Virus record (IMG/VR): IMGVR_UViG_3300045988_107814
Location: 96,001 to 160,000 of that record
Direction: 5' to 3' (one strand)
From: a virus
DNA length: 64,000 nt
Position numbers and translations under genes: made by a program. Below, piece by piece: positions 42,249-42,935 of this stretch (positions are counted from its first letter, which is position 1; the number at the start of each line of letters is the position of its first letter). The notes under the pieces were generated by a model that saw only the letters and a list, made by a program, of their open reading frames with translations, had not been told where the DNA came from and ran no database searches.

Positions 42249-42277
42249 TTTACACTTCTCTAACATATAAGTAATTA
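42249..42277 (+). promoter_or_regulatory. Sigma-70-like promoter candidate for the tRNA cluster
   Basis: TTTACA (42249-42254), a 17-nt spacer, then TAATTA (42272-42277), about 10 nt before the first tRNA. Confidence 0.35.
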
Positions 42278-42286
42278 AATATATTT

Positions 42287-42369
42287 GCGGATGTGGTGAA
42301 ATAGGCAGACACGATAGTCTTAGGAACTATTGCTTTAGCGTGCAGGTTCGATCCCTGTCATCCGCACCA
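42287..42369 (+). tRNA. trnL-UAG: tRNA-Leu (anticodon UAG), type II, CCA encoded
   Basis: Acceptor GCGGATG/CATCCGC, anticodon stem ATAGT/ACTAT, loop CTTAGGA, long variable arm, T-arm GCAGG-TTCGATC-CCTGT, and 3' ACCA. Confidence 0.9.
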
Positions 42370-42377
42370 TTATTTAT

Positions 42378-42754
42378 GCTGCTGTGGTGAAATAGGCAGA
42401 CACGAGGGACTTTAACGAAAATTCTATAAGAAAATATTTTTATTTTCAAAGTCTAATGAAGAGAGTTTGGGTATATCATTAGAACCATTTTATATGGTAG
42501 ACAAGAGCAGCTTGGGAGGGATCCCTTGGCTGAATGTGGACTAAACGGTGAAACCTAACCCAATGGTAATACCGTGCCAAATAACAAGTAATTGTTATGT
42601 GCGTAGAGAATATACATCCACCATCTAGAACAGATGAAGATTGATTCCAGACTATCAAACTACAATTTAATTAAATTGTAGGTAGTGAAAACTATAGTAG
42701 TACGAAAATCCCTTTCTTAATTGAGTGCGGGTTCAAGTCCCGCCAGCAGCACCA
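42378..42754 (+). tRNA. trnL-UAA: tRNA-Leu (anticodon UAA) interrupted by a group I intron
   Basis: 5' exon is 42378-42412 and 3' exon is 42705-42754. Joined, they give acceptor GCTGCTG/CAGCAGC, a D-arm identical to the neighbouring tRNA-Leu, anticodon stem AGGGA/TCCCT, loop CUUAAAA, T-arm GCGGG-TTCAAGT-CCCGC and 3' ACCA. Confidence 0.85.
42413..42704 (+). ncRNA. Group I intron (292 nt, no ORF) between U34 and A35 of tRNA-Leu(UAA)
   Basis: The 5' exon ends in U and the intron ends in G (42704). AAAGTC (42448-42453) pairs with exon GACTT plus the first intron T (P1). ATTTT (42442-42446) pairs with the 3' exon AAAAT (P10). P2 hairpin is 42454-42459/42476-42481. Core-like strings are GAAACCTAA (42550-42558), GATGAAG (42633-42639) and CAGACTATC (42648-42656). 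P9-like hairpin is 42660-42668/42673-42681. Confidence 0.75.
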
Positions 42755-42760
42755 TTTTTA

Positions 42761-42837
42761 GGGCCGTTGGCTTAATTGGTTAAAGCTACCGGCTCATAAC
42801 CGGTTGATTACAGGTTCGAGTCCTGTACGGCCCACCA
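42761..42837 (+). tRNA. trnM: tRNA-Met (anticodon CAU; elongator-type, or Ile2 if lysidine-modified)
   Basis: Acceptor GGGCCGT/ACGGCCC, anticodon arm ACCGG-CTCATAA-CCGGT, T-arm ACAGG-TTCGAGT-CCTGT, ACCA. It lacks the initiator hallmarks (G1-C72 is paired and there is no GGG/CCC in the anticodon stem). Confidence 0.9.
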
Positions 42838-42881
42838 CCATTATGTGTCTCCAAAATATAATACTTTTATTCTCTATCTTG

Positions 42882-42905
42882 CTCTACAGGTTAATTCCTG
42901 TAGAG
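42882..42905 (+). terminator. Rho-independent terminator after the tRNA cluster
   Basis: CTCTACAGG-ttaatt-CCTGTAGAG followed by tctctcttttg. Confidence 0.7.
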
Positions 42906-42935
42906 TCTCTCTTTTGTAAAACTTCTTATTTTCGC

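Follow-up and report, generated by a model that had tools for sequence, protein, structure and literature searches.

In the 64,000-nucleotide stretch of viral DNA analysed here (the window), the best overall explanation of one locus, which we consider very likely, is that an Azoarcus-like group I intron (type IC3) interrupts a jumbo-phage tRNA-Leu(UAA) gene between U34 and A35. That the 292-nt insert itself (42413-42704, plus strand, as are all features below) represents such an intron, and that the interrupted tRNA gene belongs to a phage, is close to certain. The insert matches a covariance model, R1, has its boundaries fixed by the allele of a related phage, and falls in a viral clade with a short P8. 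An earlier note on this DNA had proposed a phage tRNA-Leu(UAA) interrupted at the U34/A35 site, and this core of its reading is borne out by the covariance model, by covariation among relatives, by an intron-less syntenic allele and by the phage context.

The split tRNA gene

The interrupted gene sits in a small tRNA cluster. An intact tRNA-Leu(UAG) with an encoded CCA (42287-42369; ARAGORN, and Rfam tRNA at 55.5 bits) is followed, after an 8-nt spacer, by a second type-II tRNA that starts at 42378 and has the same D-arm, as had been noticed earlier. Downstream are a tRNA-Met(CAU) (42761-42837; ARAGORN and Rfam) and, past the cluster, a terminator-like hairpin with a T-run (42881-42906) picked up by a consensus scan only. 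Exon 1 (42378-42412) carries the acceptor 5´ strand, the D-arm, the 5´ strand of the anticodon stem and C32, U33 and U34. Exon 2 (42705-42754) runs from A35, A36, A37 and A38 and the 3´ strand of the anticodon stem through the long variable arm, the T-arm and the acceptor 3´ strand to ACCA. Joined, they form an 85-nt tRNA-Leu(UAA) that ARAGORN recognizes, with the anticodon loop CUUAAAA. U42412 precedes the insert, and G42704 is its last nucleotide; the joined tRNA and both insert ends agree with the earlier description. In the syntenic contig L167 the tRNA gene reads GGGACTT followed directly by AAAATCCC, exactly exon 1 plus exon 2, and this intron-less allele fixes the intron boundaries at nucleotide resolution. 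The intron mode of ARAGORN, run on the unspliced DNA, called a tRNA-Phe(GAA) with the intron misplaced by 1 nt; its labels "Ser(aga)" and "Tyr(gta)" were likewise set aside as unreliable.

The two exons behave as one tRNA. Across the intron, the acceptor stem (7/7) and the anticodon stem (5/5) are fully paired in all seven members of the tRNA-Leu family, and the stems formed by exon 1 and exon 2 show compensatory changes among these members. One such change separates the window from its nearest relative, L033 (G4-C69 versus A-U in the acceptor stem), and points to recent selection on the joined tRNA.

Evidence for a group I core

R1 was built from eight independent viral tRNA introns; five of these training introns (L014, L016, L021, L023 and L025) pass the gathering threshold of the Rfam model RF00028 (Intron_gpI). 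The model matches 42496-42704 over its full length, with 72.9 bits and an E-value of 1.2e-13, and the match ends at G42704; the second-best match in the 64-kb window has an E-value of 0.85. RF00028 itself found nothing in the insert at gathering, nor at E<=10 on 42250-42900. Among control introns it detected L014, L016, L021, L022, L023, L025, L026 and L029 and missed L002, L010, L011, L017, L032, L033, L036, L039 and L040. Because RF00028 misses the whole clade as well as other clear relatives, we read its silence as a sensitivity gap, which does not exclude the insert. The earlier note had counted the lack of any hit to group I models as refutation; the Rfam model is indeed silent, but that yardstick proves too strict, since R1 detects the insert.

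The paired structure is strongly conserved. Of 413 cells for the 38 pairs defined in the window, 95.4% are paired across 11 relatives, as compared with 30-41% for 3´ partners slid out of register; double changes occur in 22 pairs, and none of 500 shuffles attains the observed values. Covariation is strong across relatives throughout helices P2-P9, including an A-U/C-G switch in P7 and P9.0, and the minimum free energy (MFE) fold regains 42 of 47 model pairs. The architecture is IC3-like: R1, whose training introns are Azoarcus-like, scores 75-194 bits on 59 tRNA introns of the cellular IC3 type and 72.9 bits on the window intron, and the subgroup is presumably IC3. Six loci matched by a first degenerate core pattern (L004-L009) and one from a later scan (L027) were discarded as chance matches, the six lying in coding sequence.

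P2 is a hairpin (42511-42528; strands 42511-17 and 42522-28) with a GGGA loop of the GNRA type and two U.U mismatches in the window copy. The R1 structure omits this helix, and its columns in one MAFFT alignment, like those for P6 and P9a, are not structural (P6 and P9a were checked sequence by sequence); five of its seven pairs have double changes, 80% of cells are paired, and compensatory changes occur in L029, L030 and L032. The 5´ strand of P3 (42536-42540) pairs with 42617-42621, the 3´ strand supported by covariation: all cells are paired and four of five pairs show double changes, such as U42537-A42620 to C-G in L002. P4 (42545-42575; 42545-50 with 42570-75) encloses J4/5, AAA at 42551-53, and a reduced P5, in which CC 42554-55 faces GG 42565-66 and 12 R1 model positions are replaced by 4 nt. 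P5 reads CCUAAC-CC-AAUGG, has no distal stem and carries a degenerate 11-nt tetraloop receptor. Among clade members its UAA bases differ (CCUCC, CCUAG, CCUUU), as do the third J4/5 base and the receptor bases. The string GAAACCUAA, previously singled out as a core motif, is J4/5-P5.

P6 (42581-42598, GUAA loop) appears in the MFE fold, and every family member has a hairpin here, of differing sequence. J6/7 and the 5´ strand of P7, GUGCGUAGAGAAU (42599-42611), align in R1 to GUGUAGAGACU, and the P7 strand comprises G42606, a bulged A42607 and G42608-U42611. The pair G42608-C42647, which is G-C in all but one of 11 sequences (there G-U), is the predicted guanosine-binding pair; A42610-U42645 is a compensatory C-G in five relatives. 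The 3´ strand of P7 (AUUCC) follows J8/7 (AAGAUUG) within 42637-42648, a placement based on the R1 alignment and covariation. The motif GAUGAAG...AGACUA, earlier equated with J6/7-P7 of Azoarcus, was misplaced: it spans the P8 3´ strand, J8/7, the P7 3´ strand and P9.0, and the true J6/7-P7 is GUGCGUAGAGAAUAUAC at 42599-42615. P8 (42622-42636) is a plain 5-bp hairpin, CAUCU-AGAAC-AGAUG, paired in all cells, and was recognized by pattern scan as the signature of the viral subclade.

The 3´ domain (42651-42701), supported by covariation and compensatory changes, contains P9.0 (42651-54 with 42698-701), the peripheral hairpin P9a (42660-68 with 42673-81; compensatory changes in L002 and L028) and P9 (42683-86 with 42691-94), whose loop L9 is a GAAA tetraloop (42687-90). 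The 3´-domain helices numbered 7 and 8 in the covariation set have double changes in 4/4 and 3/4 pairs. An alternative register of P9.0, 42651-54 with 42695-98, was dropped for 42698-701 because L032 and L025 show compensatory U-A to C-G changes only in the latter. The terminal guanosine (omega-G), G42704, marks the 3´ splice site; it is the last R1 position and is invariant in the alignment.

The 5´ splice site and guide sequence

The 5´ strand of P1 consists of exon C, U and U and the first intron U (42410-42413) and pairs with the internal guide sequence (A)GAG at 42504-42507, which aligns to the GuG guide of R1. The 5´ splice site lies after U42412, which forms the canonical U.G wobble with G42505. 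GAG (42505-07) is invariant in all seven tRNA-Leu family members, and the +1/-1 pair of P1 covaries (U-A, U.G, C-G, A-U). With just 4 bp, P1 has a duplex energy of -1.5 kcal/mol.

A different P1 had been drawn in the earlier note, with AAAGTC at 42448-53 as the guide. This segment falls inside a decayed endonuclease reading frame and is not conserved in L033 or L002, and the homologous guide is GAG 42505-07. With this guide the wobble U42412.G42505 is present, so that the reported oddity of a splice-site U paired with A disappears. The complementarity between AAAGUC and GACUU plus the first intron U is real, at -7.4 kcal/mol, and specific to the window; the segment 42447-42453, three bases of which differ from L033, complements the 5´ splice-site region and could form a competitor helix. 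The P10 once placed at 42442-46 (ATTTT) falls within the same endonuclease debris, and we found no convincing P10 pairing at the locus. An early P1 candidate with a U.G pair, AGAGUUU (42462-68), is not adjacent to P2, and both homology to L025 and R1 favour GAG 42505-07; AGAGUUU is conserved solely because it codes for EESLG in the HNH reading frame.

A decayed HNH endonuclease gene in L1

Loop L1 (42414-42503) holds the remains of an HNH homing-endonuclease gene, as seen in a pairwise alignment with L033, an alignment of the reading frames and frame translations. L033, 95% identical over shared positions, has a ~160-aa HNH reading frame in L1. Relative to it, the window has two deletions and a 1-nt frameshift in the kept EESLG..LEP fragment, and it has lost most of the gene, of which two out-of-frame fragments are retained. 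The earlier statement that the insert has no reading frame therefore stands for the window copy (none on the plus strand exceeds 26 aa) and fails for its relatives: intact homologous HNH genes of ~150-170 aa are found in L033, L002, L028, L032 and L029. The relatives' product, an HNH protein with a treble-clef zinc finger, matches phrog_14913 (E 3e-15) and the Pfam family HNH_3 at 23.2 bits, just below the 24.8 cutoff.

Divergence is uneven between the window and L033, with 7/208 differences in the core (3.4%), 3/85 in the exons and 8/64 in the remains of the reading frame (12.5%). Among related ~215-kb phages we find the empty site, the intron with HNH and the intron with decayed HNH. L167, a 214.8-kb contig that is syntenic with the window and whose RNA polymerase gene is 82.7% identical over 3.3 kb, carries its tRNA-Leu(UAA) gene without interruption, and L033, from the same sample, carries the intron with HNH at the site that is empty in L167. 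Judged by these comparisons, the window intron is evidently a deletion derivative of an HNH-encoding intron and, with its core and exons conserved, appears as a mobile intron late in the homing cycle. After the decay of the endonuclease gene, the ribozyme could follow.

Phage context and relatives

The window has PHROG matches to virion structural proteins (E 1e-26 to 1e-41) and to a phage-type RNA polymerase beta subunit (E 4e-129), and the relatives come from IMG/VR contigs 212-221 kb long. Introns at the same site, unannotated, are also present in Agrobacterium phage Atu_ph07, at ~112.9-113.25 kb of MF403008, and in the 735-kb huge phage LR756501; in Atu_ph07, spurious coding sequences have been called over the tRNA exons. 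When the locus and 24 kb of surrounding DNA were compared by BLAST with GenBank phages, there were only generic tRNA matches or none at all.

It is highly improbable that the window and its relatives are instead cellular or plasmid DNA misclassified as viral. Such an error could be entertained given the absence of DNA-level similarity to cultured phages, the automated nature of IMG/VR calls and an ABC-ATPase-like gene adjoining the tRNA cluster. It is hard to square with the structural and polymerase genes in the window, the syntenic relatives on ~214-kb IMG/VR contigs and the same-site introns in the bona fide phages Atu_ph07 and LR756501, and the intron is at a p-distance of at least 0.40 from every cellular intron sampled.

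The distances to these cellular introns are 0.40-0.44, as against 0.32-0.33 to the viral L025 and L029. A neighbour-joining tree of 168 model columns, drawn without bootstrap, puts the window in the viral short-P8 clade and the cyanobacterial introns in a separate clade. The window intron shares its site with the cyanobacterial and plastid trnL intron named in the earlier note, and we tentatively suggest from these sequence comparisons that the window intron is no close relative of that lineage. In the same tree, which is without support values, viral CAU introns nest among betaproteobacterial ones.

Splicing and its alternatives

By analogy with the family, splicing of the window intron may proceed as follows. 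The Leu(UAG)-Leu(UAA)-Met cluster would be transcribed, the intron would fold into P2-P9 with a P3/P7 pseudoknot, and exon CUU would pair with the guide GAG 42505-07 to form the U42412.G42505 wobble. At the P7 site (G42608-C42647) an exogenous guanosine would bind and attack after U42412, and the terminal G42704 would then take its place. Attack of the freed 3´-OH of exon 1 after G42704 would ligate CUU to AAAA, giving the junction GGGACUU followed by AAAAUCCC and a functional tRNA reading UUA/UUG. The anticodon stem AGGGA/UCCCU likely aids exon alignment.

Does the window copy still splice? From the conservation of its sequence, it probably does, and among the Leu codons of the window UUA is used most, at 39.6%. 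We think it unlikely that the intron is dead and the gene a pseudo-tRNA without efficient splicing, with a host tRNA-Leu(UAA) or another phage copy serving UUA/UUG. With 64 kb of a ~215-kb genome visible, a second decoder of UUR codons may exist, and several features could be taken as decay: the lost endonuclease gene, the silence of Rfam, the degenerate P5 receptor, the U.U mismatches in P2, the lack of P10 and, at 42447-53, a 7-bp competitor helix (-7.4 kcal/mol) that is more stable than P1 and could sequester the 5´ splice site. However, all core helices are intact, and the reduced P5 and the P2 mismatches also occur in L033, L002 and L028, in which the HNH gene is intact, and are thus features of the clade and not of decay. 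The core and exons, moreover, diverge 3-4 times more slowly than the remains of the endonuclease gene, and the compensatory acceptor-stem change between the window and L033 also speaks against a dead gene.

The same alternative helix could be cast as a switch. The earlier note had suggested that the intron might make the UUA/UUG decoder conditional, and splicing could in principle be tuned by GTP or Mg2+ levels, by the helix peculiar to the window or by a factor from the phage or its host. In favour of this, UUA and UUG together make up ~50% of Leu codons in the window, and three substitutions relative to L033 have created the alternative 5´-splice-site helix. Yet that helix is conserved in no relative, the closely related L167 phage does without the intron altogether, we found no regulatory element at the locus, and the pattern of presence and absence with a decaying endonuclease gene fits a selfish homing element. 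We therefore find no support for conditional supply of this tRNA and regard a regulatory intron as very unlikely. Most likely, the intron is a selfish passenger, neutral to the phage while it splices.

Comparison with known introns

Among the closest known systems is the IC3 intron in the pre-tRNA-Ile(CAU) of Azoarcus sp. BH72 and its betaproteobacterial relatives, compared here through loci from Rhodocyclaceae, Burkholderiales and Neisseriaceae. Both have the compact helix order P2-P3-P4-P5-P6-P7-P8-P9.0-P9 and are anticodon-loop insertions in a tRNA; in each, P1 pairs 3 nt of exon with the guide, includes a U.G wobble and lies immediately before P2. J4/5 AAA, the bulged A in P7, GAAA on P9 and the terminal G are also common to both, and R1, trained on introns of this type, covers the window core end to end. 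In IC3 introns, the L9 GAAA docks in the P5 11-nt receptor (CCUAAG...UAUGG) and the L2 tetraloop in P8. The window intron, in contrast, lies in a Leu UAA tRNA at 34/35, has GAAU/AUUC in P7 instead of GACU/AGUC, has a reduced P5 that lacks the 11-nt receptor and a short 5-bp P8 with no receptor, and has an additional P9a hairpin and a 90-nt L1 with endonuclease debris; it scores 72.9 bits, as against 165-203 bits for CAU-type introns. Its clade has a version of the Azoarcus fold in which P5 and P8 are minimal.

The cyanobacterial and plastid trnL(UAA) intron shares the U34/A35 site, the tRNA species and an IC3-type core, and like it the window copy has no reading frame; cellular examples were recovered, such as L042, L045 and L047. 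Relatives of the window intron, in contrast, encode HNH, and we know of no report of an endonuclease gene in cyanobacterial trnL introns. In their biology, the phage introns with HNH-family endonucleases offer a parallel: the SPO1/SP82 DNA polymerase introns with I-HmuI/II and those of Bastille (I-BasI) and Twort (I-TwoI) are likewise phage-borne, and in the window's relatives, too, the endonuclease gene runs into the ribozyme core and the intron is polymorphic for presence among related phages. The SPO1/SP82, Bastille and Twort introns lie in protein genes and belong to IA-type subgroups, whereas the host gene in the window encodes a tRNA, the ribozyme is IC3-like and the reading frame has decayed. 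I-Ssp6803I, a cellular homing endonuclease of the PD-(D/E)XK type, resides in a group I intron of a tRNA anticodon loop and targets the tRNA gene; the window's relatives, in contrast, are viral and encode an HNH, treble-clef zinc-finger protein. The Synechocystis PCC 6803 tRNA-fMet intron with I-Ssp6803I is referenced in a 2014 review of bacterial group I introns (PMC3984707).

Implications

According to the same review, all phage introns then known lay in protein-coding genes, despite the many phage tRNA genes (PMC3984707), and our literature searches and targeted reading turned up no later report of a group I intron in a phage tRNA gene. The huge-phage paper never uses the word intron (PMC7162821), and papers that mention Atu_ph07 together with introns describe no tRNA intron in that phage. 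The intron type is ordinary; what we found no published report of is a phage tRNA gene as its host. Default tRNA finders overlook split tRNAs and RF00028 overlooks this clade, which leaves inventories of phage tRNAs, analyses of codon supply and predictions of hosts slightly wrong. Atu_ph07 is cultured, and splicing of a phage tRNA intron is therefore directly testable. The locus also provides a natural series, from the empty site through introns with an intact and with a decayed HNH gene to a compact intron that has no ORF, in which the homing cycle could be followed at a tRNA target.

It is possible, and we offer it as a tentative reading, that the tRNA genes of phages, especially jumbo phages, are a sizeable and overlooked niche for mobile IC3 introns with HNH endonucleases, and that phages move anticodon-loop introns between bacterial phyla. 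Hints come from the introns found at this site in Atu_ph07, in the 735-kb phage and in several phages of ~215 kb, and from the nesting of the viral CAU introns among betaproteobacterial ones; standard annotation misses all of them. If true, it would overturn the textbook split between bacterial introns, in tRNA genes and ORF-less, and phage introns, in protein genes and with ORFs, and phage transfer could account for the scattered occurrence of introns in tRNA-Leu(UAA) and tRNA-CAU genes.

Results

The tRNA-Leu(UAG) gene (42287-42369; called by ARAGORN and Rfam tRNA) is followed, after an 8-nt spacer, by a second long-arm tRNA that starts at 42378 and has an identical D-arm. Only with 42413-42704 removed are exon 1 (42378-42412) and exon 2 (42705-42754) called as an 85-nt tRNA-Leu(UAA) with the anticodon loop CUUAAAA. 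The insert is 292 nt long with 34% GC, is preceded by U, has G as its last base, and contains no plus-strand ORF longer than 26 aa. An earlier note, made from sequence alone, had described a second tRNA with the same D-arm that folds only without 42413-42704, and an insert that follows a U and ends in G; both descriptions were borne out. ARAGORN in intron mode detected the split gene in unspliced DNA, but set the intron one base off and labelled the gene wrongly as tRNA-Phe(GAA).

Rfam 15 gave no Intron_gpI match at the gathering threshold across the whole window, and nothing at E<=10 on 42250-42900. The earlier note had named a lack of matches to group I models as grounds for rejecting the intron, but the Rfam model (RF00028) also misses clear Azoarcus-like introns. 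A sequence pattern over the putative J4/5, J6/7 and P7 core, used to retrieve introns for comparison, yielded 17 viral contigs with such introns, the majority inside tRNA genes (CAU, Arg, Asn/Tyr, Gln and, in locus L025, tRNA-Leu(UAA)). RF00028 matches part of these (L014, 74.9 bits; L025, 69.8 bits) and fails on others, the window's own relatives among them, so its miss here is a problem of sensitivity. Eight independent introns of this set, with the window and its near relatives left out, were aligned (A2). RNAalifold, unaided, found P3, P4, P5, P8 and P9 in this alignment; with the P7 pseudoknot added, 97.7% of cells are paired, versus ~33% with the 3´ partners slid, and 16 pairs show double changes. 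The covariance model built from A2 (R1) has a single strong match in the 64-kb window, at 42496-42704 (72.9 bits, E 1.2e-13), which covers the whole model length and places the guide GuG on GAG 42505-07 and the final position on G42704; the second-best match within the window has an E of 0.85. We conclude that a jumbo-phage tRNA-Leu(UAA) is interrupted at U34/A35, over 42413-42704, by a real group I intron of the Azoarcus-like IC3 type.

Helices were assigned from homology to L025 and from the R1 alignment. P1 (42410-13 x 42504-07) has a canonical U42412.G42505 wobble at the 5´ splice site, where a U-A pair had been drawn, and encloses L1 (42414-42503), the debris of an endonuclease ORF. Next come P2 (42511-17 / 42522-28, GGGA loop), P3 (42536-40 / 42617-21), P4 (42545-50 / 42570-75), J4/5 (AAA, 42551-53), a reduced P5 (42554-55 / 42565-66) and P6 (42581-87 / 42592-98, GUAA loop), a hairpin in all members with differing sequences. 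P7 consists of G42606, a bulged A42607 and 42608-11, with 42644-48 as the 3´ strand; P8 (42622-26 / 42632-36), P9.0 (42651-54 / 42698-701), P9a (42660-68 / 42673-81), P9 (42683-86 / 42691-94, GAAA loop) and omega-G (42704) complete the intron. In the R1 alignment the true J6/7-P7 element is GUGCGUAGAGAAUAUAC (42599-42615); the string GATGAAG...AGACTA, previously read as a match to the conserved core, resembles the J6/7-P7 element of Azoarcus but is the P8 3´ strand, J8/7, the P7 3´ strand and P9.0. P5 is minimal across the window's clade (CC-NNN-CCCAAU-GG, 42554-42566 in the window), and there the receptor bases 'UAA' vary (UAA, UCC, UAG, UUU) and the L9 GAAA is invariant.

Covariation was counted in A4, an alignment of 11 members of the short-P8 subclade, over which the window structure is 95.4% paired, versus 30-41% when slid; both partners vary in 22 of the 38 pairs, and none of 500 shuffles reached the observed values. 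P7 is unusual in the window, with GAAU/AUUC rather than GACU/AGUC, and one of its pairs shows a clean compensatory switch in A4 (A-U, n=6; C-G, n=5). The pair adjacent to the splice site, intron +1 x guide -1, co-varies (U-A, U.G, C-G, A-U), the peripheral hairpin P9a has compensatory changes in the related loci L002 and L028, and 42 of the 47 model pairs are also found in the minimum free energy fold of the core.

The P1 and P10 guides proposed earlier (AAAGTC, 42448-53; ATTTT, 42442-46) both lie inside L1; the former is not kept in the closest relatives and the latter shows no conservation there. The AAAGUC complementarity is real, in that 42447-42453 form a 7-bp complement with 42406-42413 in the 5´ splice-site region, at -7.4 kcal/mol versus -1.5 for the true 4-bp P1. 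It is exclusive to the window copy and arose from substitutions at 42448, 42451 and 42453 as compared with L033, the nearest relative. This complement could act as a misfolding trap or a helix that sequesters the splice site, or could have arisen by chance as dead ORF sequence drifted.

Viral loci L002, L003, L028, L029, L032 and L033 carry tRNA-Leu(UAA) genes split at the same site by introns of 587-621 nt, as does L030, a locus cut at its 5´ end. L1 of these loci holds an ORF of ~150-170 aa with HNH (EDVHHxD...NN...NL...H) and zinc-module (CxxC...CSRxCS) motifs, which matches phrog_14913 'HNH endonuclease' (E 3e-15) and scores slightly below the cutoff for Pfam HNH_3; it spans P2-P4, with its stop within or past the GAAACCUAA core. 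On its 214-kb contig, L033 has the window's gene order, Leu(UAG)-Leu(UAA)-Met, and 95% identity over 376 shared positions. The window lacks two L033 blocks, one with the RBS, start codon and N-terminus and one with the HNH and zinc modules, and keeps an 'EESLG..LEP' fragment with a 1-nt frameshift. Thus the description of the intron as ORF-less holds for the window copy, where no plus-strand ORF exceeds 26 aa, but the ORF has decayed and the relatives carry it intact as an HNH ORF. Judged by this comparison, the intron derives by deletion from a mobile intron that encoded an HNH endonuclease.

Differences from L033 number 8/64 in the ORF debris (12.5%), 7/208 in the ribozyme core (3.4%) and 3/85 in the exons, one of the last being a compensatory acceptor-stem change across the intron. 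The acceptor and anticodon stems, with one strand in each exon, are paired at 7/7 and 5/5 positions in seven family members, with several compensatory changes. The exons thus evolve together as a single tRNA, an argument for their being joined.

A syntenic locus without the intron, L167, lies on a 214.8-kb contig from the same sample as L033. It shares the window's ABC-ATPase gene and tRNA cluster, and the two RNAP genes show 82.7% identity over 3.3 kb. Its tRNA-Leu(UAA) reads GGGACTT|AAAATCCC, and this uninterrupted allele locates the splice junction to the nucleotide. Comparison with the window shows that intron presence is polymorphic among close relatives.

A scan of genome collections listed at least 120 loci, among which the classic IC3 hosts were cyanobacteria (mostly tRNA-Leu(UAA)), Betaproteobacteria including Rhodocyclaceae (tRNA-CAU), Patescibacteria and Acidobacteria. 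In a neighbour-joining tree without support values (R1 alignment of 79 introns, 168 columns), the window groups first with L033, L002, L028, L030 and L032; viral L025 and L029 join next, followed by viral L023, L031 and L034. The cyanobacterial trnL introns fall into a clade of their own, and the p-distance from the window to every sampled cellular intron is at least 0.40. Although they share the insertion site, the window and cyanobacterial trnL introns thus appear, tentatively, to belong to different lineages. Viral tRNA-CAU introns L016 and L011 nest among the betaproteobacterial (Azoarcus-type) L043, L057, L062 and L080; this could reflect phage-host exchange, or bacterial or prophage DNA labelled viral by mistake.

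The source of the window is a jumbo phage: it encodes virion structural PHROGs (E 1e-26 to 1e-41), a phage multisubunit-RNAP beta subunit (E 4e-129), and SbcC and thymidylate-synthase domains, and its relatives are IMG/VR contigs of 212-221 kb. DNA-level comparison with cultured phages gave no match. UUA is the commonest Leu codon in the window (39.6% of Leu; UUA and UUG together ~50%), and therefore the interrupted tRNA serves the phage's main Leu codons. No support was found for the earlier idea that splicing makes the supply of this decoder conditional.

Discussion

The fold and mechanism of this intron are ordinary, and its conservation suggests that it is probably still splicing-competent. 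A 2014 review (PMC3984707) places every phage intron known at that time in protein-coding genes. Full-text searches of the searchable literature turned up no later account of a group I intron in a phage tRNA, and the huge-phage paper never mentions introns (PMC7162821). Within that literature, the host-gene class, a phage tRNA, and the partnership with an HNH endonuclease are apparently unreported.

Same-site tRNA-Leu(UAA) introns are unannotated in two deposited genomes. The cultured 490-kb Agrobacterium jumbo phage Atu_ph07 (L039 1375-1736; MF403008 ~112.9-113.25 kb) has a 278-nt U34/A35 group I intron (R1, 107.6 bits), and a 'hypothetical protein' CDS over exon 2, AUZ94936.1, is probably spurious. 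LR756501, an uncultured 735-kb phage and the largest reported phage genome, has a 205-nt intron (L036 1507-1797, ~190.2-190.5 kb; 134.6 bits) that clusters with it; the paper behind this genome is silent on introns.

Other phages gave further matches. An ARAGORN-called tRNA-Lys(UUU) of Gordonia phage Daredevil (NC_048021; L040 1379-1690) contains a ~238-nt group I intron (66% GC, R1 68 bits); gp51, which encodes a free-standing HNH endonuclease, lies a few hundred bases from it. Two weaker R1 matches (L021 1334-1484 and 1843-2023; 27.6 and 40.9 bits) upstream of the main tRNA intron of a 142-kb viral contig may represent additional introns of greater divergence within the same tRNA cluster. 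Partial R1 matches to the P4-P6 core, unannotated in both cases, came from two more phages. In Alteromonas phage AD45-P1 (L038 1509-1590) they are flanked by two hypothetical CDSs, and in Enterococcus phage phiEF17H (L037 1510-1553, 2161-2270) by split ribonucleotide-reductase CDSs, the classic context of protein-gene introns. A 135-nt Rfam tRNA match, oddly long, in L032 (1021-1155) and an ARAGORN 'tRNA-Leu(CAG) with 37-nt intron' in L031/L035 (sub-region 513-626) could be artefacts or additional interrupted tRNAs. The 104-kb viral contig of L029, with its HNH-bearing tRNA-Leu(UAA) intron, also has a tmRNA (1042-1442; Rfam beta_tmRNA, 105 bits; ARAGORN tag ANDSIFEVRLAA) alongside at least 10 tRNAs.

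Every stage of a homing cycle is represented among these loci: the empty site in L167, the intron with its HNH ORF in L033, the decayed ORF in the window, and the compact 198-nt intron in the tRNA-Leu(UAA) of L025. Uninterrupted tRNA-Leu(UAA) genes with the same anticodon arm occur on at least 120 other viral contigs and are potential targets.
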